64,000 bases of DNA from Mobula hypostoma. Taxonomy: Eukaryota. The notes under the pieces were generated by a model that was not told the origin of the DNA, made no database searches, and saw only the letters and a program-made list of their open reading frames with translations. Of this stretch, positions 12,251 through 50,400 are shown piece after piece. The number at the start of each line of letters is the position of its first letter. Positions within the stretch are counted from its first letter, which is position 1. Location: contig NC_086097.1 of the NCBI RefSeq assembly GCF_963921235.1, forward strand, positions 173,292,001-173,356,000, read 5' to 3'. The translations under genes and the position numbers were made by a program.

Positions 12251-15200
12251 TGAACAATGGTTCACAGCTTTTTTTTTGCCTCGATCACAATATGTTTTAA
12301 CATGTCCCCCAAGGCACACAGCGCCCTGAATTAGAAATATATCACCTTTCCTTCTTCATCACTGGGATAAAAATTTGAATTCCTTCCCTAACAGCACAAG
12401 GATTATTGCTGCTCACCAGCACCTTCTCAAGGGCAATTAGGAATGGGCAAATAATTGCTGGCTCAGCTTGTGAGGCCCACATCCCTTGCATGAACAAAAA
12501 CACACATACAGAAAAAGATATTTTCCTACTTTTATGTCTCTTGCCAGTTGAAGCATAGTTAACAGGAAGGGATCATCCAGGTCTCTTCACTCAGCCAGCA
12601 CCCACTTTACCCTTATCTCTGTTCTGACCTCATTGATATCTTAATGTTTTTCTTTATTTCACAAGATGCTCTGTCCAAAATTCAACTGAAAACCAGCATC
12701 AATTAAATTAGATGTTTCAATGGGACTTATCTAAAACACATTTTCAAATTAGTCTTCTGGTCCTGTCAATTCACTTCATTACTGAAAGAAGCACAGAACA
12801 GATCACCACAACTATAATTAATGTCTATGAACACCAATCTTCAAAAAAAAATTTTCCAATGCTAAATACAATTTTCAGAGATGTCTGGGTACATTCTTCA
12901 TGCTATAACTTTTCCAAAAATCTCAGTGAAAACAACTACAGTGAGGTAAAAAGTAGCTTGCTGTTGTCGAAAATCTATTTTGTTTTAGCTTTTATTCCTT
13001 GTTAATATAAACTGCTGTGCTTTCTGCCTGTGCTGAGCTTATAAAAAATAATTCTGGATTTTGTTCAATGCCTACAAAACCTACTTCCAAAAATAATATT
13101 TGAAATTCACTGGTACAGCACTCCTCCAGCTTATCTCTGCTTCACAAAATGGAATGGAGACTTTAAATCCATAAAGTTAATCTCATCTACAGCTTCAATC
13201 TCCTCTAACTCAAACAAGCAATCAGGTTGCAGCCTATTTAAAACATTCTCAGACAGAAAACTAAACAACTTACTTGCTTTTAAACAGTTGGTAAGGCATA
13301 GTAAAGATGCTTTACTTCAGATTTATAGTTTGCTGTTAATATATCACTAAAGTCAGCAAATTCTAAAAATATGGTGAACAATTTGTAGTATTACCTACGT
13401 TAAAGGCAAACAAAAGAAATCCTGCACTGTCCGAGATGACTTTTACATTATTGCTGATTAGTAATCTAATATAATTTAGATAAAATTTCATAAACTACTT
13501 TCAAAGAATATGCTTTCTTGCACACATCATAAAATGACAAACTGTGACAAGCAAAATTACAAAGTCAATTACGTTCATTTAAACACATTTATAGTACTAA
13601 AATACAGAATCCAAGGTTCTTTAAATAAAACCACATTTATATACAGGAAATATGACTTCTTATTGCAAGCAACATACAGCATGTAACACAGCGTAGCATG
13701 TACATGAAGTGTTAGTGATTGTAAAGGGGTCACTTCACAAACAGAACCATTCTTTAGTTTAGGTCTTGATTAACCACAAATGACAGATAATTTGCAGCTT
13801 TATCACCTATTGACATTATGAATTTTGTACAATGTGAGCACATTATTCCATGTCACAGAAAGTTGATTTGATCTGCACGTCTCATGGAATTTTACATTTT
13901 AAACCATGCATTAAGCACTTCACAATTCTGAGCAAAATACTCCATAGAGAAATAATAAATAGAAAAGCTTCCATTTTCCTGAACACATTCTACACAAAAG
14001 ACCCTTTTGTCATATACGGACTGCACTATATCATTATATTTTGACACACATCAGGCATTTAAATTACAGTGAGGCTAAGAAATTATGACAGATAATTAAA
14101 ATTCATGACATAACATGAGGTTAACTCAATTACTTCTCTTGCATATGGATTAGAAGATTTTGGTGCAGAACAGAATACAAATTACAGTATGCAACTTCTA
14201 AAACAATAGACCCACCCATACTTACCTTTTCCCAGCTGGTCTTTAGAGAACAGCTGACAATGTCCTCCTCTCAGGCCAACTTCTATCCACATTCCTTAAC
14301 TCCGGGAGGATTGATATATTGACCCTATCTATGCTCTTCGTGATTTTATACAACTCTAAGATCACCCCTGATTCTCCTAAACCCTCTCAAAAAGTCCAAT
14401 CTGTTTAAACTGTCTCCATAATCCAGTCTACTGAATACTGGCAACATCCTCATAAATGCCCACTACAGTTTGTGCTAGTTGTATGTGGTTGTATCTGATC
14501 TTGCAATCCACTGGTAAACTTTGCACAGGGTGCAGTGGTGGAGTGCAAAAATAATAGGGATCAGAAGGATAACTGACCCAAGCCTGATAGTCAGTTCTCA
14601 TCAGGCTTGGACTAGCTCAGATGTATAATCTGACAAAACAGTGTGGATCAGTTGGAGCTAGACGGGACTCTGCTGGTCTAACTCAACTGAAGTCAACCTG
14701 ATCAGCATCAGATCATGTGCCACCCAGGCACTAGGTGTGTTGGGTCAGATTAGGCATGAGAAACACAAGCAATCAGGTCAAGTATCCATCCAGAATAGCA
14801 CAGACAATTTCAAACCCAAGCAGACCTCTAGGCTAGAGACTTCTTCATCCAGCCACTCAGATTTACACTAACCATGCCTGAACATATGTGGTGTAAATTA
14901 ATTCTTTTTAATAGGGTTGGCCTTGACTGAAAGAAAAGTGGATTCTTCATTTTACTCAAAATCACATACATAATTTTAAAGGAAGAAACATAAGATATCC
15001 TAAAGTTATTTAAATTTATTTCAACTGTCTGTAAGCATGCTTGAAACTGACAAAGTGTTACTAGTTGACGAGGTTAATCCTGGTGCAGCAAGGGTAATCT
15101 TGGCCTCTGAATTCAATAGCTGATTCCTGGTCAATACCTATGGATCGCTGTACTGTATATGACGGCAATGACAACCAGGTCTCCAGGTTTATCTGCATGG

Positions 15201-16349
15201 TCATAATTTCAAGTGCAGCCCTGGGAAAGGTGCAGAAAGACAAGAGTGAACCATGCAAGAAAGGGAAGGAGGAGTGGAACCAGATGGAAGTGATGGACAG
15301 GTGAGAAGAGAATCACATGCTCTTTTTGTCCTGAAAAAGCAGGGAGAATTGTAAAGCATGAAAAACTAAAAATTCAAAACCTGTAATGTCAGCATTTCAA
15401 AAGTATTCATCCCGCTTTGCTCAGTTCTCATTTGAATCACCTCTTGTAGCTATTACAGCCAGTAGTCTCTTTGGATAGCTCTCTATTAGCTTTGCAGAAC
15501 GTGACGAAGCAAGATTTTCCCATTCCTCCTTGCCAAATTGCTCAAGCTGTACCAACTTAGTTGGGGAGCAGGGGTGGACAGCAATCTTGAGGTCTTGCCA
15601 GATATGGTTGATTTGGTTAAGGTCAGGACTCTGACTGGGCCACTCAAGGGCATCAATTTTCTTCATTTGAAGCCACTCCATGGTTATTCTGGCAGTGTGC
15701 TTTGGGTCACTGTCCTGCTGAAAGATGATCTTCCTCCCCAGTTAAAGTTTTCTGGCAGAGGCAAAATCGTTTTATCTATGTATTAAGCAGCATTTATCTT
15801 TCCATTAATCATGACTAGATTTCCAGTCCCTGCTGCTAAAAAGCATCCCCCCCAAACATACTTAACAGTAGGGATGGTGTTACCTGGCTGATGCACAGTA
15901 TTAAGATTTACACCACATGTACCGCTTAGTGTTAAGGCCAAAAAGTTCCACTTCAGTCTCATCCAGCCACAAGGCCGTCTTCCATATCGTTACAGTATCT
16001 TCTAAGTGATGCTTTGCAAAATCTTTAGGAGCAAGGATATGCTTTTTTTTTAGCCAGAGCTTCTTCCTTGCCATTCTTCCATAAATACCCTGTCTATGCA
16101 AGGCCTTAGAGATTGTAGAGCCATGAACTTCATCTCCAGTTGCAGCCACCGACTTCAGCAGCTCACTGAGACTGACTGTTGGCATCACAGTAGCCGCTCT
16201 TACAAGTGCCATCCTTCTCCGTTGACTAAATTTTGGGGAGCAACCTGACCTAGACAATGTGGCTGTGGTTTCATGTTTTTCCACAATGAACTGCACTGAG
16301 CTCCAAGGTATATTCAATGCCTTTTCTTGTACCCTTCCCCAGATTTGTG

Positions 16350-16959
16350 TGTAAGGGGTCTCTTCTTTCATGTTACTTGCTGAGACTAATAAAATGGCTT
16401 CTCTGTAATATCAACTGTTGATGTAAGGGGTTCTCTGTAGCAGCATGTTTGGGTTATAATTAGTGATAACGGGACTTGCATTCATTTGCTAACCAACTGG
16501 GACACATATTATTCTTTCTTGTGCACCTGAAAGCTGTTGTTTGCATGGGATTTGGTCAGAACATGCCATGGGGATGAAGAGAGAAGACGCACATGAAGAG
16601 ATGCTGTAAACTGGCTAGCAGAGCGGACCCCGAGCAGGAGCCCAGCGGAGTTCGGAGGAAATCGAATGGTGGACCGAGGATATTGTGTTAGCTCCAACGA
16701 GTTATTTGTGCACAAACTGTCTAATTATTTTTCTTGGTGCCTTTTTATTTCATATTTTGGTTCTCTATTAATCCCATAGTTATAAGAGTTATAAAATCTG
16801 AATTACTTAACCGCATCCTGTGTACGGCTTGTCATTATGGGGTACTGATTTGAGACAGGGGACACATTGCACAGCATTCACCTAAATGAGAGTTTTAAGG
16901 TTTGGCTGGGCAGGGGGTTATCACCTGAGATCATGTCACTAGGCAAAGCAAGTGTTACA
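16350..16959 (+). repeat. 5' LTR (610 bp)
   Basis: tgtaagggg...gtgttaca; direct repeat of 20356-20898. Confidence 0.92.
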
Positions 16960-16961
16960 TT

Positions 16962-16979
16962 TGGGGGCTCGTCTGGGAT
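16962..16979 (+). promoter_or_regulatory. Primer binding site, tRNA-Pro
   Basis: TGGGGGCTCGTCTGGGAT, 17/18 to the canonical tRNA-Pro PBS TGGGGGCTCGTCCGGGAT, 2 nt after the LTR. Confidence 0.9.
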
Positions 16980-17239
16980 TACGGGTAGGAGCGGGTTCAG
17001 TGGGGTGCATATTCGTACTCAGGAGAAATTGTTCATCGGATTTCGGAGTTTGGGAAAAGCTGAGGGCAAAGTTGAAAGCGTGGCGTGAAGATCTGATAAA
17101 ATGGCGGGCTCAGTCTTTGTTCTAGGTCAGACTAGCGCTGACGTCACGGTGGTGGGACTGCCAGTGTCTATTGGTGAGGCGGGGCCATGGGCTGTCCATA
17201 TTGTCAGGTGTGAGGGGAAAGGGTGGTCGGAATGTTCCA

Positions 17240-17600
17240 GCTATGGCAGGCTCCGCCAGGTTTTTGGAATAATGTCCACCCTTAAAGCGGCGGAGGTGTG
17301 GGCGGAGCAGAGCTCTCAGTTGTTAGGTGAGTAGCAGTGCTAAGCTGAGGGACAGCGACAGGGATTGGTTGGAAGTTTAGATAGACGGGCTGCTGACATT
17401 GTTAGAACTGTCAGGTTCAGTGACCCCATAGTGACAGCTGCCAGTTATCGGCAGGCGCGGGAAAAGGCGTTTGGTTCGACTGGGGGCAAACTGTAGCTCG
17501 GGGTGGAGTTTCTAAACGTGAGTCGGGAGAATGGGGGAAAGCGTTCAGAGTACTTTTTTTAGCAGAGAAACAGCTAAATTGGTTGCAGTGCAGTGGGGGG
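17240..17600 (+). pseudogene. Gypsy gag remnant (PNMA-like capsid)
   Basis: YGRLRQVFGIMSTLKAAEVWAEQSSQLLGE*QC*..RQGLVGSLDRRAADIVRTVR resembles the PNMA-type gag stretch YRRLRVFSG..WLEQ..EWQC..KRRRLVESL.GPALDIVR; contains stops. Confidence 0.6.
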
Positions 17601-17953
17601 GGTCATTCAGCTGATCAGAGAGGTGTCAAGAAACAGAGGAGACTCAGTGGGGGAACTGCCTGGTGTCTCTTGGGGGAACACGTTCCCAGGGTCATGAATC
17701 ATTAGTGCTGATGTGCCTGGACACTGTTGAGATGGGCAGCGTTTCAATTCTGGAGGGGACCACCACCCCGCTGGTGAGGAGGCGCATGGTGGCCTGCCAC
17801 GCGGGTGAGAGCTGTTTGGGGGCATTGTCTGTGCACCCAGTGTTTCGAGCTGCTTGTGAGGACATGCGTAGCAGCATTGGGCCGGTACCGAATTTAAACG
17901 AGAGCCCATGGTAGTATGGCCCAGGTGAAGTATCTGAGGGTGAGACCCTCTTA

Positions 17954-18775
17954 TAGATAGATAGATAGATAGATAGATATACTTTATTGATCCCGAGGGA
18001 AATTGGGTTTCGTTACAGCCGCACCAACCAAGAATAGAGCATAAATATAGCAACACAAAATCCACAAACAATCAAACAACAATATGCAAACTATGCCAGA
18101 TGGAAATAAGTCCAGGACCAGCCTATTGGCTCAGGGTGTCTGACCCTCCACAGGAGAAGCTGCAAAGTTCGATGGTCACAGGCAGGAAGAACCTTCCTTG
18201 ACGCCCAGTGTTGTACCTCGGTGGAATATGGCCAAAGTCCAACAGCAAAAAGTTCAATATCCGGTCTACAAACACATTCCTCGATCGTAATATGACCCGG
18301 ATTGCACTATCCGTTGTTAACCAGAACAGCAAGCCCCCAACTCCTTTAAGCTTACCACTCTCAGTGCACTTCCGGTCAGCCCAAACGGACTAGAAGCCAT
18401 CCATGGAAAAGTTTTGATCGGGTATGTCCTCGTGCAGCCCCATTTCAGGAAAACACATAACACTGCTCTCCCGAAATGTTCTCTGACTCCTGGCTAGCGC
18501 CGTCAACTCGTCCATTTTATTACCCACCAAAATCCTCTTCTCCAGAAGTCTCTGTTGTCTCGACCCGGTCCTCTTTCCTCGCCTTTGTGATCCCCCTTTG
18601 CATCCTCTGTGTGTTTTCCTCCAGATTTTAGCAGTTTTGTCTGCCGCTCTGTTCGCTAAACTGGTTGGCATAAGCGCAATCAGCTGGTCCCTGGAATAAA
18701 CAGTGTGACCATACTGCTGCCCCGCTAATGAGACGTGTCCGAATGTAACTATTAGTGGATGCTCCAACATACCAC
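17954..18775 (-). mobile_element. Internally deleted Rex/Babar-type LINE nested in the Gypsy element
   Basis: (CTAT)n tail after AATAAA; 3' end shared with 27257-27661 (GGSDTLSQ*); 5' part encodes an APE N-terminus (YSRDQLIAL..NKMDEL..VMCFPE..DGF). The 5' boundary is approximate. Confidence 0.75.
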
Positions 18776-18816
18776 GAGGGGAGGGAGACACCTCGGTGAG
18801 AAAGACGTCACGGTGA

Positions 18817-19437
18817 CTGGCCCCTGCAGACGTGGAGGATGCAAGCAGCGTGTGTATAGATTATAGGACTCTGAACAAGCGCACCGTCCCTGAACAGTAT
18901 GAGGTTCCAAGGGTCGAAGATGCACTGGTCTGTCTGATTGGTGCAAAGTGGTTTAAATTACTGGATCTGAGGAGTGGATATTCCCAGATCCCAATGAGTG
19001 AGGCCGACAAGGAGAAGACAGCTGTTATAGGTCCCCTGGGATTCTTCCAGTCCAAAAAGATGTCCCAGGGCATATCCGGAGCCCTTGCAACCTTCTCGTG
19101 GGGCATGGGGAAGACCATGGGGGATGTGGACTTGTGTGGAGTTTTGATGTATTTGGATGATCTCCTAACGTTGGGTTTCGCCTTGGAAGACTATGAAGCG
19201 AGGTGAGTAAGGGATCCCGGGCAACTAGGGGTTAACAAAGTAAAACTTTCTTTGGACGAGTGCCAGGTCTGGAGAAGGACGCAGATTGTGAGTGTTCTGC
19301 GTTCATTTGCGGAAATCTGTGGTTATTATTGGAGAAATTACCCAACGTACCAGTTGAATTTCCTGGCGTTGGAACAGACGACAGTGGCGGAGGAACTGAA
19401 TGACTGTCTCTATGGGATCAAGTTTGAAGTGGAGACA
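18817..19437 (+). pseudogene. Gypsy pol remnant (RT plus RNase H fragment)
   Basis: [61 protein letters not shown]. All in one frame with a stop at 19204-19206. Confidence 0.9.
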
Positions 19438-19449
19438 GAGAAACAGAAT

Positions 19450-19866
19450 TCCGAGCAGAAACTGGAGAAATTGATCCAGAACAAGTTGGACGACTTGCAC
19501 GTTGGGGAAGACAAAGGAAGCTGCCTGAGTAGGGCAAACAGAGAACTGAGAGCACCAAGAGGGGAGTCTGAATACAATTCAGAGGAGGTGAAGCAATGGC
19601 GGACAGATCTCGGAAGAGGGGAGCGGAAGCTTGAAGGAGACCTGAAGATGATCATTGACAGCGTAAATGAAATGGGAAAACTGGAAGTTGAACAGGAAGC
19701 AATCATTAAGAAGAAAGAGCTGGAGATAAGTTCAGAGACCAATAAACTGAAGGAGTCCAAGAAGAAGCTGACGCCTCGATTACAGGAGGCTGAAGAGGCA
19801 GCAAAGGCAGCCCAGGCCAAGTGCTCCAGTTTGAAGAAAGCCAAATAGCAGCTACTGATCGAGGAA
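19450..19866 (+). pseudogene. Captured sarcomeric myosin heavy-chain rod fragments, intron-less (MYH16/MYH7-like)
   Basis: LDDLHVGEDK-36 aa-RKLEGDLKMIIDSVNEM..KKKELEIS aligns without gaps to recalled myosin LDDLQAEEDK-36 aa-RKLEGDLK..KKK(D/E)FE. It is followed by [32 protein letters not shown], matching [32 protein letters not shown]. Confidence 0.85.
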
Positions 19867-20342
19867 ATGGGGAAGAATACGGATTCAAAGGATGATGAGC
19901 TGGATGTGTGGTATCTGCTGCCTTTCGCTAACTTCCCCTCGATTGAGGAAGAGACTTTTGGCCCTTCTCCCACTGAGTCAGGTGTAGTAGGGAGGGATAT
20001 CTGTGGGCAGCCTGGGTTACAGCAGGACCCTAAAGGAAAGGAAGCGGGGGCCTGGAAACGAGATAGGGGGCTCCAAGTTGCAGGGAGCGAGTGATAGGTT
20101 GAGAGAGGATTTGGTAAGTACTCCCGATAGTGTTCGAGCCTGATGAGTTACATGAGGGGATACGTAGGTCTCAGAGGATTAGGAGACTCCTGGATAGGTT
20201 GGCCTATGTAGCACCTGTGGAACAGGGCGTAAGGTCTACTGTTTGGGGAGCGATGTAACTGTTTTTGTACCTGGATTGGATTGGTGGGTTTGCAGGAAGA
20301 TTTGGCAAGTTATATGGATGTCATGAGGACATGACAAAATTT

Positions 20343-20355
20343 GGTGGGGGGAAAG
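20343..20355 (+). promoter_or_regulatory. Polypurine tract
   Basis: ggtggggggaaag immediately before the 3' LTR. Confidence 0.8.
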
Positions 20356-20898
20356 TGTAAGGGGTTTCTTCTTTCAAGTTACTTGCTAAGGCTAATAAAA
20401 TAGCTTCTCTGTTGTGTTATAATAAAATGGCTTCTCAGTAATGTTAACTGCTGATGTAAGGTATTCTCTGTAGCAGCATGTTTAGGTTATAATTAGTGAT
20501 AACGGGACTTATGTTCATTTGCTAACCAATTAGGACAGATGTTATTCTTTCTTGTGTATCTGAAAGCTGTCCTTTGCATGGGATTTGGTCAGAATGCGTC
20601 ATGGGGATGAAGAGAGAAGACGCACATGAAGAGATGCTGCGAGCTGGCTCCGGAGTGGACCCCGAGCGGGGGCTCAGGACCCGGGCAGATTTCGGAAGAA
20701 ATCAAATGGTGGACTGAGGATATTGCGTGAGCTCCAACGAGTAATTTGAGCACGAACTGTCTAATTATCATTCTTGGCGCCTTTTTATTTTATATTTTGG
20801 TTCTCTACTAATCCCATAGTTCAAGTAAGAGTTATAAAATCTTAATTATTTAACCGCATCACCCCGAGATCGTGCCACTAGGCAAAGCGAGTGTTACA
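20356..20898 (+). repeat. 3' LTR (543 bp)
   Basis: Direct repeat of the 5' LTR; lacks about 105 bp after ccgcatc and has a short extra duplicated segment near its start. Confidence 0.92.
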
Positions 20899-22019
20899 TG
20901 TGCTTCTCATTTATGATTTGCTTGACTTGTCTTGAATGCTTTTTGGTTTGGTCCGTTGAAAATCTACCATACTGTTGGACCTTAGAGAGAGACAGAGGCG
21001 ATATGTGTTTTCATGAATTAATTGAAAAAAAGCTGATCCTCCAATTTTCCACATCAACAAATTGGGTGAGTTGCTAAGGTAATATTGTACAATGAACCTG
21101 AGGAAAGTTGGTTTAGTAATTACAAAGGGGATGAATACTTTTTCAGCCTCACAATTTTGGTTTTTAATCTTTAGTAAACTGTTGACAGGTTTTGGAATTT
21201 TTCTTTTGATTCAACATGATGCACAATGTTTTGTAGATAAGCTCAGACAAATCCTGCTTTAAACTAGTTTAAATTTTAAAAATGAGAGAGTAAAATGTGA
21301 AAATAGTTGTGTAGGCTGAATGTTTTTTTAAGGCACTGTATATAAGACGGCCTTTGCCCATCTCAAGGGGATGTTTTCACTGCCTACACAGGAAAGCAGG
21401 AAAATGCAAAGATCCAGACAAGGTGGTGGCAGATCAGTCACACGCTCCAATAAACTTTAACTTGCTATGAATAAGGTTAAAATTGACTCCAAAATGGTTC
21501 CAATTTTAAGAAAACCAGACAGCTTGTACCATGAGAAGTAATGATACAATATTAGTCCTTGTCATCAAAGGAGAAAGACCATAAGGAACAACAAGGAACG
21601 AGGCATACAGCAAAGGTTCCTCTAACACCTCCACAAATAACTTTGTCTCTCAGGTGAACAAAGCTCAGACTTCAGCTGTTTCCTCCCAGTCTCCGGACAG
21701 ATCCATGTAAAACAGAGCAAATCTTACTTAAGCAATAAATAATCAATTTATTTAACAAATGATTGGTTAATAAATAACCTCGTGTCTCTACTTTTACTCA
21801 ACACGACTGTAAAGACAGCAGTACTCAAGAGAGAAACTGAGATAAGTGAAAAGATATTCCCTTATGATGGTGCTGGTGAATCAAAACAATATGCTGCATG
21901 CTGCTTACCAAGTACTTTTGAAATGTCTTAATGAACTAGCGATTTCACAACCTTATGAAGGCTTCGGTTGACTTAATTTGCACATATACAGGTACCATAT
22001 AAGTGGATAAATGTACATC

Positions 22020-31762: not shown

Positions 31763-33747
31763 GTTTGTCATGAAATTTGTTGTTTTGTGGCAGCAGTACA
31801 TTAGAATACATAATAATAGTAAATTACAGTAAGAAATATACATAAGGTTCCGGTGACGTCATCATCCAGAATGGCAGCTTAAATCAAGAGCCCCATATTT
31901 TGCCCCGTTAATCCATCAAGTATAAGATCTTCTGAAAATATCTGAATTGATAAGGGGGGCAAGAATGGGGAAAAAGAATGGAGATAGTAAAAGCATCACT
32001 GCGGAGCCTATGGAAGAGAGAGGTGCAATGCGCGGCTCTCTTACACGCGCACGTGGTGGTGAAGCTGACACTGGGCCTCGTTCAAGTGAAGTGGCAAATA
32101 TGATAAGGATTTTGGAAGAGATAAGGGAAGTCCAAAAAGATATAAAATGGCAACTCAATGATATCAAGTCAGAGCTCGCCAACGTCAATCAGAAAATAGC
32201 GGTGGCAGAGACTCAAATTGAGAAGGTGAAAGATCGCGTGCAAAATGTGGAACGGATACTAAGTAAGATGATAAAAATATTAGATCAACAGGAAAGTAAA
32301 CTGCTTGACCAGGAGGGAAGATCGTGATGGAAAAATATCAGGATTTATAATGTTCCCGAAGGAGCAGAGGGATTGTCGATGACGGAGTTTGTAGAAAAGT
32401 TGCTGCAGGGAGTGCTGGAGATTCCTCCGACTATGGAGATTGAAATTGAGAGGGCGCATCGTGCACTCGTCCGGAGGCCTCCGGGAGACGGAGAAAGTAA
32501 GCCACGCTCAATAGTACTCAGATTCCTTCGATTCAAGAGCAAGGTGGAGATTCTACGAAGGGCCTGGGGTAAGAAGAGGGTGTTTTGGAACAGGAAGTTA
32601 ATATACTTCGATCATGATTACCCCCTGGCGGTCCTACAGAAACGGAAGGAATATTCCGAAGCGAAACGAATATTAAAGCAAGAAAAGATTAAATTCCAAA
32701 CCCCGTACCCTGCTAAACTGAGAGTATTTTACGAAGCAGAGATACAGCTATATCAGACAGTAGAAGAGGCGACTACAAACATGAACACAGTGGCTAACTT
32801 TAGAAGTGCTGATAAACGAAACGGATGCAAAAATAGGCGGTGATATACCTATCTCAAGAAATACGTATTATAATGTGGATCTTATATTACTCAATTTTTC
32901 TTACTCATTCATTCACTCCTTCTTCCCCACCTAAATGAGAATATGTATATGGGATGAATACACAGGGAAATCATTTCTGTGTAATGGACATAGATTTTTT
33001 TTTACTTACTTTTATAGGTACTGCAGCGGGGGCCCTCAACTCACAGGTAGGAGGGGCTATCCCTCATAGCTAGACATTTCCTCTAGCTCAACGCAGGGTC
33101 ATCTAGAGACCCCAGCCTTGGAATCACACCTTCATTACCTTTTTTTCATTATTCACGTTTCTTGGTTCTTATTTGTTCAGGGAGTAGATCGATTAAGTTA
33201 TATTTTGCAAATTTCAATGATATACTAACAGATAAATACACATAGCTAAGGACAAAGTAAAATTCATTTCTTTTAATGTCAATGGGCTGTTAAATCCAAT
33301 CAAACACAGTAAAATTCTATCAAAAATGCAAAAAGAACAAGCCCATGTAGTATATTTACAGGAAACTCACTTAAGTGATAATGAGCATGGAAAATTAAAG
33401 AGAATGGGCTTCACTAATTTGTTTTTCTCCTCATATAAATCAGGACATAGAAGAGGAGTTGCTACTCTCATCTCAAGCAAGCTAAATTTTGAAAAAGTAT
33501 TCGAAATGGGAGATAAGGAGGGCAGATATATTCTGGTAAGGGGGAATATAGACTGAAATCCAGTGATCTTATTGAATATATACGCACCCCCAGTAAGTGA
33601 TATTAGTTTCTTCCAGAAAATTACTAATATTATGGTAACGGAAACAGTAGATCTCTTGATATGTGGGGGTGACTTAAATTTACAATTACAACCAAAGTTA
33701 GACTCTTCCAATAGAAAAACTTATGAAACAAAGTCCTTACATAAGAA

Positions 33748-33804
33748 CGCAAACATGAGGAATTCTGCAGATGCTGGAAATTCAAGCAACACACATTTGT
33801 GTGT
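33748..33804 (-). mobile_element. Penelope terminal fragment flanked by a 14-bp direct duplication
   Basis: 57-bp insert (gaggaattctgcagatgctggaaattcaagcaacacaca..) between two copies of TCCTTACATAAGAA (33734-33747 and 33805-33818). Confidence 0.75.
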
Positions 33805-34090
33805 TCCTTACATAAGAAAGTTAACACTCTTTTTGAGGATGTTGGTCTAATTGATATATGGACGGGTCTTTTCCCCAATAGAAGGGATTACACTCATTAT
33901 TCTGCACCCCATTCTGTATATACAAGAATAGACTATTTCATAACATTTGGAAAAGATAAAGCCAAAATAAACACCTGTGGAATTGGAACAATAGACGTAA
34001 GTGACCATGCACCTATATATTTATCTGTTGATTTTGACCTGCAACCAAAGAATACTATTTGGAAACTAAATTCAAGTCTACTCAATGATT

Positions 34091-34568
34091 CATCAAAGTT
34101 GCTGGTGAACACAGCAGGCCAGGCAGCATCTCTAGGAAGAGGTACAGTCGACGTTTCGGGCCGAGACCCTTCGTCAGGACTAATTGAAAGAAGAGCTAGT
34201 AAGAGATTTGAAAGTGGGAGGGGGAGAGGAGATCCAAAATGATAGGAGAAGACAGGAGGGGGAGGGATGAAGCCAAGAGCTGGACAGGTGATTGGCAAAA
34301 GGGATATGAGAGGATCATGGGACAGGAGGCCCAGGGAGAAAGAAAAGGGGGAGGGGGGAAAACCCAGCGGATGGGCAAGGGGCATAGTGAGAGGGACAGA
34401 GGGAGAAAAAGGAGAGTGAGAGAAAGAATGTGTGTATATAAATAAATAATGGATGGGGTACGAGGGAGAGGTGGGGCATTAGCGGAAGTTTGAGAAGTCA
34501 ATGTTCATGCCATCAGGTTGGGGGCTACCCAGACGGAATATAAGGTGTTGTTCCTCCAACCTGAGTGT
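34091..34568 (-). mobile_element. Penelope-like element: GIY-YIG C-terminus plus pLTR with hammerhead (34146-34181)
   Basis: Minus strand encodes TLRLEEQHLIFRLGSPQPDGMNIDFSNFR*; intact AGTC-CTGACGA-AGGGTCTCGGCCC-GAAA-CGTC-GACT. Confidence 0.8.
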
Positions 34569-35090: not shown

Positions 35091-35857
35091 GGGGTTCCAG
35101 TGACGTCATCCTTCAGAATGGCAGCTTAAATCAACAGCTCTTTCGGAAAAACACATATATTGCCCCGTTAATCCATCAAATATAAGATCTTTCGAAAATA
35201 TCTGAATTGATGAGGGGGGCAGGAATGGGGAGAAAGAATGGAGATAAAAAAAAGCACCACTGCGGAGCTGATGGAAGAGAGTGGTACAGCACGCGGCTCT
35301 CCTACACGTGCGCGTGGTGGCGAGGCTGACACTGGGCCTAGTGCAGGCGAAGCGGCAAATATGATAAAGGGTTTGGAAGAGATAAGGGAAGTCCAAAAAG
35401 AAATAAAGCAGCAACTCAATGATATAAAGTCAGAGCTCGCCAACGTCAATGAGAAAATAGCAGTGGCAGAGACTCGAATTGAGAAGATGGAAGATCACGT
35501 GCAAAACATGGAACAGATACTAAGTAAGACGGTGAAAATATTAAATCAACATGAAAGTAAATTGCTTGACCAGGAGGAAAGATCGCGACAGAAAAATATC
35601 AGGATTTATAATGTTCCCGAAGGAGCAGAGGGATTGTCGATGATGCACTTTGTAGACAAGCTGCTGCGGGAAGTGCTGGAGATTCCTCAGACTACGGAGA
35701 TTGAATTTGAAAGGGCGCACCAGTCGCTTGTCCAGCAGTCTCCCGAAGACAGAGAAGGTAAACCACACTCCATTGTACTTAGATTCCTTCGATTCAAGAG
35801 CAAGGCGGAGATTCTACGAAGGGCCTGGGTTAAGAAGAGGGTGTTTTGGAATGGGTA
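35091..35857 (+). mobile_element. Second copy of the same L1 family: 5' UTR plus ORF1 only
   Basis: Begins ggggttccagtgacgtcatc, like 31846; ORF 35238-35858 is colinear with the first ORF1. Confidence 0.85.
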
Positions 35858-35863
35858 GTTATA

Positions 35864-47444: not shown

Positions 47445-50400
47445 ACCATCCTCTGACTAAACAAATTTTTTCTCATCTCTGTTCTAAATGGATGTCATTC
47501 TATTCTGAGGCTGTGCCCTCTGGTCAAAGATTCCCACACTATAGGAAACAGCCTTTCCACAACTAATCTATCTTCGCCTTTCAATATTTGATAGGTTTCT
47601 GTGAGATCCCCCCATCCTTCTAAACTCCAGTAAGTACAGAGCCATCAAACACTCCTCATATGTTAAACGTTTCATTCCTGGGATCATTCTCATGAACCTC
47701 CTCTGGGCCATCTCTGAAGTCAGCACGTTTTCTTAGATAAGAGGCCCAAAATTGCTCAAAATACTCCAACTGCGGTCTGACCAATGCTTTATAAAGCCTT
47801 TCCATTACATCTTTCTTTACGTGTTCTAGTTCTCTCACAATGAATGCTAACATTTCATGTGCCTTCCTTACCACAGACTCAATCTGTAAGTTCACCTTTA
47901 GTGAATCCTGCATGAGGACTCCCAAGTCCTTTTGCACCACTGATTTTTTAATTTTCTTCCTATTTAGAAAATAGTCCTTGCCTTTATTATTTCTGCAATG
48001 TGCATGGCCATGCTCTTCCTTATACAATCAGGCCCCGCATAACGCTGATTCATTACAACATGGTTATTCAATTCTTTACTGAAAATTTTAAAGATGACAA
48101 AAACTCATTCTAAACAACACTTAAAACTTCCCAAGAGCAGCCACTCTTACAGTAAAAATTCAATCAGCCAGTGAGAGTGCTATACATCAGCTCTGAGCCA
48201 CTCACAGCCAATCACGTATTAGTTCATGCTGTGCTTCTCCCCGCCCCCCACTTGTGTAACCATTCTTGTTCCCCCGTCAATTTATTCCATTTTCTTCACC
48301 CATAATGTCCAGAAAACCACTGTAACTTCCAGTAAGAGTAGTACATCTAAGATGTCTAGGAAAATTATTAACATGGATGTGAAACTGAAAGTGATACAGC
48401 ATTTAGAAGCTGGTGAGTGTAAGGTTGATGTTGAGGCCTCTTTGAAATTGGCTACATTGACAATCAGAACAATTATAAAAAATGCAGACAAGATAAAAGT
48501 TTCTGTAATGACAATCTCAAAATTATCATCAATGAAAATAGCCATTCAAGAAGCCATTTGTTTGAAAAAATGGAAGATAGACTAAATATATGGTTGGAAG
48601 ACCAAACACAATGAAACACGCCCCTAAGCCAGCTGATAATAATGGAAAAGGCAAGAAGCATCTTGCATCATATTCAAGAAGAAGAAGATATGTCGGTAAC
48701 ATTCACAGCCAGCAGAGGTTAGTTTGGTAAATTTAAAAGCACAGTAACCTCCATAGCATATGTATCTCTGGTAAGATGGCCAGTGCAGACAGCAAGGCAG
48801 CCCAGGGTTTTCCTGCACCACCGAAGGCCATAGTCGAAAAGGACAATTATCCTCCCGAGCTCATCTTCAATATTTTGGAAAAGAATGCCTTCTAGTACTT
48901 CCATCTTCCAAGAAAAGAGACATGCATCTGTATTCAAGATTGCAAAGGACAGGTTAACTCTCTTGCTAGGAGGCAATGCTAAAGGTTACTTTAAGTTAAA
49001 GCCTCACTCTGAAACACCACGAGTAATGAAAGGCATTTTAAAGTCAAGTCTACCAGTGATTTGGAAATCAAACAAGAAAGCCTGGGTGTCAATTGATGTT
49101 TTCCAAAATTGGTTTGTTTCACATTTTTGTCCAACAGTGAAGCAGTATTGTGAGGAGCATGATCTTGAACCTAAAGCATTCTTGGTGCTGATAATGCTCC
49201 AGGCCACCCTGAGAATCTTGACACACTTCAGACCTGCACTCCTGTAGAAGTGGTTTACCTTCCACCCAACACCACTTCATTACTCCAACCAATAGATCAA
49301 GGAGTAATATCGAATTTTAAAGCCTACTACCTTTGTTATGAATTCAAGCAATTTAAAGAAGAAACTAAAGGTCAAGACAAACAATCCGTCAGGCAATTTT
49401 GGAAAAACTATAATGCCATGAAAGCTGCAGACAATATCACAGCAGTCTGGGATGAAGTAACTTCAAACTGCATGAACGGATTCTGAAAGAAGCTATGGCC
49501 AGAAACATACAACAACGTCCTAGGATTTCAGGTGGAACTAATCATCCAAGATCAGTGAACTGGCCAATGAAGCGGGATTAGAGGATGTTAATGATGATGC
49601 TTTTAAAGAGTTACTGCATTCTCATGGTGAGAGCCTTAAAGTGCTTCGAGAATTGGCAGAGCAACGCATCCTGGGTGAATCTGAGGACATGGATGTAGAG
49701 GAGGAAACACAGGCAAGAAACTCTCATCACAAAATTCCTCAGCACCAGCATCACCACAATTACACAGATCATGAACCAGTTCATCGATAATGACCCTGAA
49801 TGGAAGCAAAGCAATAAGGCAAAGAGAGGTGTGCTCAACAGGATTTCCTGCTACCGAGAACTGCTTCATGAGAGGAAACTTAAGAAAAGGCAATTAAATC
49901 TCAATGCCAACTTGACGAAGAAGCCAAGGTTTTAGGAGGACCTACAGCCTGGTCCCTCCTCTAAGACGTTACCACCACCTGCTTCCCCCGCTGCTGCTGC
50001 GCTGTTGCTATTCTACTGATGTACAGGTTAAACCTATTTACGTGTTTGTTATTCCATGAAATAATGTGTATATCTCAGGTTTGATTTTTTAAAAATCAGG
50101 CACACATGTCCATTTACGTAACGTTACAATGAGCCCGCATAACGCTCGTTTACATAGTGCTCTGTCTCCAAGGACCACATCCTCAGCATTAAGTGAGGGT
50201 ACAATATTCCACCTGCCACTTCTTTGCTCATTCCTCCAATCTGTCCTTCTGCAGACATCCTGCTTCCTCATCTATCTTCATATCACATGCATACTTGGCC
50301 ACAAACCCATCAATTCCATCATCCAAATCACTGACATACAATCTGAAAAGAAGAGGGGGTCCTAATACTAACCCCTGAAGCACTCCACTAGTCACCAGCA

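Follow-up and report, generated by a model that had tools for sequence, protein, structure and literature searches.

A non-autonomous Ty3/Gypsy LTR family of rays carrying a captured, spliced myosin-rod mRNA

The LTR element in the window

The window (the whole 64,000-nucleotide stretch of Mobula hypostoma DNA that was analysed) contains an LTR element of 4.55 kb, which is a decayed copy of a non-autonomous Ty3/Gypsy LTR family. Its LTRs (TG..CA ends, plus strand) occupy 16350..16959 and 20356..20898, with a K2P distance between them of 0.125 over 466 aligned bases. They are flanked by the target-site duplication TGTG (16346..16349 and 20899..20902, unstranded); the joined flanks align across the insertion site with an unoccupied copy of the surrounding repeat (L042) at 79% identity over 127 nt. 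The primer-binding site lies at 16960..16979 (+) and presumably resembles a tRNA-Pro primer site; the polypurine tract is at 20337..20355 (+). These features, together with the domain order in a parent-type copy (L098: PF17919/PF17917, PF17921 and PF00665 in that order, i.e., reverse transcriptase (RT), RNase H and integrase), uphold the original prediction of a Gypsy LTR element.

The interior is read on the plus strand. It starts with a decayed gag (17102..17688, approximate limits from the alignment to other copies; in copy L056 gag matches PNMA/PF14893 with E 4e-12) and a protease remnant (17689..17950); compared with copy L064, 291 bp are deleted at 17688. An unstranded foreign repeat of about 0.8 kb, particular to the window copy, is inserted at 17951..18785; it begins with a GATA microsatellite, and the contig depth over this insertion is very high. 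A partial RT (18817..19335; PF00078, E 3e-12) with a stop at 19204-19206 in the ORF list is followed by an RNase H remnant (19336..19431), shortened by two in-frame deletions (345 and 393 nt) that other copies share. Three myosin blocks come next: the end of donor exon b with the start of exon c (19427..19464, 36/38 identical); spliced donor exons c-d-e-f after a 72-nt deletion (19454..19749, 265/296 identical); and spliced donor exons l-m after an 876-nt deletion (19750..19864, 102/115 identical), with a stop codon at 19846-19848. The element resumes at 19865..20095 (end approximate) with a short pre-integrase spacer and the pol tail, the integrase being deleted.

Judged by intact RT, RNase H and integrase, the element is not autonomous: RT and RNase H carry deletions, and an integrase core was found in none of the 47 myosin-bearing copies (0/47). 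The window copy is further damaged by the 291-bp deletion, the 0.8-kb insertion and the two stops. It no longer works as an element, yet judging from assembled contigs it seems to be still transcribed and spliced. These contigs come from runs only guessed to be RNA and match 19405-20900 piecewise, many without differences. A GT..AG joint (19911..20566, +) leading into the 3' LTR is present in three of the four runs, and a second joint from about 20114 in one of the four; two studies are represented. The joined forms are missing from the 47 DNA copies, where the best match covers 24-25 of 40 bases. With the nature of the runs only guessed, this suggests a spliced transcript from the window copy. 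One such contig extends beyond the matched stretch, and the annotated models of other copies (P0003, P0004 and P0005) appear to use the same GT..AG joints. The open frame at 15038-15096, which is the first exon in model P0003, showed no tie to a host gene.

A decayed DNA transposon, which we take from its motifs to be Tc1/mariner-like, surrounds the LTR element (15421-16345 and from 20903). Elsewhere in the window lie two ORF1/endonuclease remnants, 87-91% alike and presumably LINE-1-like (31894-34242 and 35154-35858), and transposase remnants in the ORF list at 48223-49486, which we assume to be Tigger/pogo-like.

The myosin insert and its donor gene

The 213-aa frame at 19207-19848 reads as predicted, including the 36 residues from EDK to RKLEGDLKM. 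Its myosin identity is confirmed by two separate stretches matching myosin-7 (996-1107 and 1357-1418, E 4e-8). The best full-length protein matches are myosin-16-like proteins, and among protein records the frame is 100% identical to one of Mobula hypostoma and 98% to one of M. birostris. The locus itself carries a myosin annotation; ray annotations name element copies, this one included, ‘MYH16’ or ‘myosin heavy chain’ proteins. Pfam gave no match for the myosin part of the window; in the ESM Atlas P0130 falls in generic myosin-tail clusters, and P0229 gives only leads below 0.9.

The donor is a myosin-rod gene with long introns on contig C68 (14480496-14707477, plus strand; loci L124, L153, L147, L136-L146, L160 and L161). 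The copies are 84-97% identical to its exons at the DNA level and skip introns of 3-39 kb. Eleven donor exons (a-i, l and m) were mapped, all open and GT-AG bounded; intron a/b is 44 kb long. The three intron positions named in the original prediction correspond to true GT-AG introns in the donor, and the window copy lacks all of them: d/e at 19566/7 (28.7 kb), e/f at 19712/3 (3.0 kb) and l/m at 19760/1 (24.2 kb). Two further donor introns are crossed, b/c at 19446/7 (38.9 kb) and c/d at 19479/80 (19.4 kb), which makes five in the window copy; long copies cross more. Considering that the donor exons are matched one by one and the introns are absent, the proposed origin from spliced mRNA stands.

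Two positions have to be corrected. The jump to a second rod segment exists; however, it is placed at about 19749/50 rather than at 19731-19737, and it skips 876 nt, or 292 codons (a figure that assumes donor exons j and k to total 246 nt, as in MYH16). The myosin-derived sequence was said to follow directly after the RNase H motif, whereas it begins at about 19427, inside that motif.

A MYH16-like donor had been tentatively proposed. Exons b to m of the donor agree in size with those of MYH16, but the donor is a divergent separate gene. Canonical MYH16 (on C36) was rejected, with identity of 58-69% over the main blocks against 84-97% for the C68 gene. Taken together, MYH16 and the fast genes on C2, C40 and C68 match at 58-84% over short stretches only, and the non-muscle myosin genes at C45, C68:25.5, C36:126 and C80 are without a DNA match. 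The idea that the insert had diverged by about 55% under long selection while inside the element was dropped, since the true donor matches at 84-97%. The sarcomeric myosins were located in an eight-gene cluster at C68:15.3-15.9 Mb, 0.6 Mb from the donor, and as three single genes at C40:17.1, C2:160.9 and C36:112.7.

Narcine protein models with isoforms differing by whole exons are much closer to the copies than MYH16, and it was these that pointed to the C68 gene. A 19-row tree joins the donor to its Narcine counterpart (100/100) on a long branch of their own between the MYH16 and the MYH7/fast groups, with the donor outside the MYH16 group. The donor is 48-61% identical to other myosins, and of 1614 candidates none was a full-length relative above 60%. 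No motor exon was found near it on C68 between 3.7 and 15.3 Mb in a search that scored 54/54 candidates and recovered 15 myosin II motor exons; an earlier search (49/49 candidates scored) likewise gave none beside the donor. It is possible that donor motor exons are hidden in an assembly gap. Models from electric ray, paddlefish, zebrafish and pipefish open with the same short peptide ahead of the rod sequence. From these comparisons the donor appears to be a separate gene, a candidate motorless myosin-rod gene of jawed fishes; this candidate is thereby exposed, and it is testable, as a zebrafish gene model (XP_017213980) exists. The Drosophila myosin rod protein and the molluscan catchin are motorless rods too, made as alternative transcripts of a muscle myosin gene. 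The donor is like them in being a rod without a motor and unlike them in being a separate vertebrate gene. No description of the donor or of the element family was found in the literature covered, which lay outside subscription journals and repeat databases.

Capture joints and family history

The 5' capture joint is at base 1 of exon b, where 10 of the first 12 bases are common to the exon and to myosin-free relatives of the element; the 3' joint falls at positions 104-112 of exon m and has an exact 5-base overlap. Both joints are in frame, and neither shows poly(A) or a duplication of its own. The myosin piece stands in for about 55 bases of the element after RNase H. Template switching, which had been proposed, is supported by the short sequences shared at both joints. 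An inherited capture of this kind requires germ-line expression of the donor.

Two other routes to such joints have to be weighed. The element could have lain in donor intron a/b and been spliced onto exon b, leaving only the 3' joint to a template switch, as in the retroviral route of oncogene capture. All seven long copies shown (7/7) start with base 1 or 2 of exon b, as this would have it; however, no GT donor is present at the joint in the right phase, and the site of the joint is explained by microhomology, because the element shares 10/12 bases with the exon start. We consider this route unlikely. Still less credible, and very improbable in our view, is a processed pseudogene made by a LINE and then inserted into, or recombined with, one element at the DNA level. 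Loss of introns would be expected there as well; against it stand the missing poly(A) and duplication at the joints, the position of both ends inside the mRNA, the replacement of 55 element bases and the microhomology at both ends.

The original prediction placed myosin where the rest of RNase H and the integrase should be. Neither replacement is borne out: longer copies keep the RNase H end, and the identical loss of integrase is already seen in a sister family free of myosin. A search with the 3' end of RNase H gave 30 loci, five of them with myosin; among the other 25, an integrase core is present in 20 and a short integrase-deleted join in four, with L094 likewise by translation. The myosin copies retain the integrase-deletion join of these sisters. 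The sisters are not derived from myosin copies, because they keep the ~55 parental bases that the myosin copies lack. In the RT tree (35 rows; five rows with short cover were skipped) the myosin copies and the sisters split from the integrase-bearing copies (100/97), and the myosin copies are all on one side (76/72). The window's RNase H/myosin joint is a later deletion of 393 nt, and the jumps inside its insert result from losses of 72 and 876 nt, common to 27/47 and 11/47 copies; instead of two separate myosin fragments there was a single capture, which successive deletions trimmed. At least five structural subfamilies exist, the window copy being of the most trimmed type.

We propose an account in four steps, namely integrase loss, mRNA capture, serial trimming and selection for translation, and put its probability as a whole at roughly 0.8. 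An integrase-bearing Gypsy family gave rise to a non-autonomous derivative through an 87-nt RT deletion and the integrase deletion, as both structure and tree show. Reverse transcription of the derivative would then have switched to a co-packaged spliced C68 mRNA and back at short shared sequences, so that the ~55 bases after RNase H became exons b to m, in frame at each end. The junctions of this step are seen directly in the copies, and its enzymology we infer. The chimera was then mobilised in trans and lost sequence through successive microhomology deletions, and both the copying and the trimming show in the copies themselves. Finally, masters would probably have been selected to remain translatable from end to end, whether through RNA stability or through a Gag-Pol fusion acting in cis, like that of IAP 1Δ1, with the myosin amino acids as unconstrained cargo.

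The family is amplified, as had been supposed, and is not a single event: at least 103 distinct loci with shared joints were found on 29 contigs (DNA and pattern matches pooled). A 521-bp query gave 779 candidates, and all 40 that were scored match (40/40). Searching with a 32-base pattern that spans the e/f exon junction yielded 52 matches, against none for the control; such matches also occur on the small contigs C198:465699, C116:4527051 and C148:350660. With weak protein matches included the loci number 162, and 8/8 weak ones newly examined are family copies; an L020-L033 match proved to be a different repeat. The family is larger than 103 loci, because only 7 of the 23 loci of one search recurred in others.

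Protein models derived from the element are known from Hypanus, Hemitrygon and both Mobula species; the family spans two ray families (stingrays and devil rays). None came from Narcine, skates or sharks among 11 matches, which is weak evidence of absence. The K2P distance between LTRs is 0.081-0.123 in seven other copies, against 0.125 in the window copy; one 129-base LTR pair at 0.048 was set aside. Contigs of a coded organism B differ from the window copy at 11 of about 800 bases, which makes the insertion about nine times older than that split. At the protein level the long copies show 83-88% identity with the Mobula donor, as against 67-70% with its Narcine counterpart, which implies that the capture postdates the split of those lineages.

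Reading frame, known systems and a second capture

The shared deletions of at least 30 nt in the myosin part (modal lengths 60, 72, 105, 126, 429, 624, 837 and 876, scored among 47 copies) are all in frame (8/8); lengths of 219/220, in one copy each, were dropped as undecided. The same holds on the RT/RNase H side for 87, 162, 294, 345, 114, 393, 468 and 756 (8/8), where the lengths 294 and 162 rest on 3/5 copies and shifts of 33, 45 and 99 were omitted as unverified. For repeat pairs the chance share in frame is 0.50-0.71 (myosin part) or 0.38-0.50 (RT/RNase H, k 5-7), and at the upper values 16/16 in frame has a probability of 0.71^8 x 0.5^8, or about 2.5e-4. Control regions lack this bias, shared indels being in frame in 6/47 cases for the LTR and 1/5 for the 3' UTR. 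Other counts speak against a maintained frame: the distal pol tail gives 0/8 and the RT blocks 2/8 among shared small indels, some of the latter being alternative alignments of one event; few copies extend over the gag-pol junction, and its frame differs between them.

The captured protein shows no purifying selection: nonsynonymous to synonymous changes (N:S) number 51:23 for subfamily-diagnostic and 297:112 for private differences (p 0.57), equal to the neutral control, and the window copy has stops. Shared stops number 0/94 against 17/426 private ones, a borderline difference (p 0.052). The simplest reading of these counts, we believe, is that the RNA may have been selected for being translated through and not for myosin function.

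The same capture could also have occurred with no selection at all, the frame being kept solely because in-frame microhomologies prevail in a heptad-rich coding sequence. The high chance level in the myosin part (0.50-0.71) and the neutral N:S agree with this, as do small frameshifts common to several copies, e.g., a -1 shift within a G run of L021, L023 and L026. We regard it as possible but rather improbable, considering that RT/RNase H is also 8/8 in frame where chance gives 0.38-0.50, that both capture joints are in frame and that there are no shared stops among 94. More doubtful is a useful coiled coil, for instance one oligomerising a Gag-protease fusion in place of RT and integrase, with myosin rods as favoured cargo. 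It would account for the maintained in-frame fusion and for a second, unrelated family (described below) in which a protease-like frame is fused in frame to non-muscle rod exons; however, amino acids are unconstrained (p 0.57), subfamilies retain partly non-overlapping and steadily trimmed rod pieces, myosin-free sisters exist, and the second family came from a search that covered myosin cargo only. Selection for translation of the RNA remains the reading that we prefer.

The primary paper on mouse IAP 1Δ1 is reportedly Saito 2008. In the passages of PMC6466679 and PMC7411935 that concern it, IAP 1Δ1 is described as non-autonomous; a deletion joins its gag and pol into a single frame, the fused product works in cis, and this subtype transposes more than its helper does. 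The ray family is likewise a non-autonomous deletion form with one maintained frame, as far as those passages go; unlike it, IAP 1Δ1 is an endogenous retrovirus without a host insert, and the cis role in rays is presumed from sequence only. An open frame without protein constraint suggests that the cis-translation rule of IAP 1Δ1 may shape Gypsy elements too, and that it would also govern which host pieces survive in them.

The main text of Tan et al. (2016, PMC5131818) establishes LTR-mediated retroposition in animals, with microsimilarity, in-frame fusion and secondary copies. The ray family resembles the retrocopies described there in its partial spliced mRNA between LTR-element sequence, in microsimilarity at both switch points and in secondary retroposition; those retrocopies are often in frame, and both ray joints are in frame. 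It differs from what that text describes in having at least 103 loci, several trimmed subfamilies and a range of two ray families, and also in an acceptor already without integrase and a frame kept through many later deletions. Nowhere does that main text use the word “myosin”. The same text gives maize Bs1 as having 1-5 copies and three donor genes (PMC5131818). Like Bs1 as presented there, the ray family is a non-autonomous LTR element with captured host exons and switch points common to the copies; unlike it, the ray family drew on a single donor and exceeds a hundred copies. The capture mechanism is already known, and what is new here is the large scale and the unexpected donor. What the analysis adds of value is the identification of the donor, the ordered history, the frame signature and a second capture. 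For a vertebrate LTR gene capture the history can be read in order, from helper through integrase-less sister and single capture to serial trimming.

A myosin-tail scan revealed intronless non-muscle myosin stretches in a second, unrelated element family, which we take to be Copia/GalEa-like; Pfam returned no gag or protease family for it. Its loci are L031 (C18:48745314-48747700), L032 (C50), L033/L034 (C184, C157), L035 (C21), L037 (C22), L038 (C9) and L036/L040 (C12). This is recurrence and not enrichment; no enrichment can be drawn from it, because the family was discovered through a myosin search. A wider proposition is that myosin rods are a non-chance cargo (two unrelated LTR lineages, each with a coiled-coil rod fused in frame to its Gag-protease polyprotein, the translated oligomerising tail helping a defective element to claim helper machinery), and that the first donor is an undescribed motorless gene, conserved between rays and zebrafish and with germ-line expression; taken as a whole, we think it improbable. 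The rod of the second family matches four consecutive exons of the gene at C45:100.2 Mb at 85-87% (L036 at 75%). In L031, which is flanked by direct repeats of about 150-200 bp, a frame with a CCHC knuckle and a protease-like part continues in frame into myosin for 305 residues, and a matching junction region is present in L032, L033 and L038.
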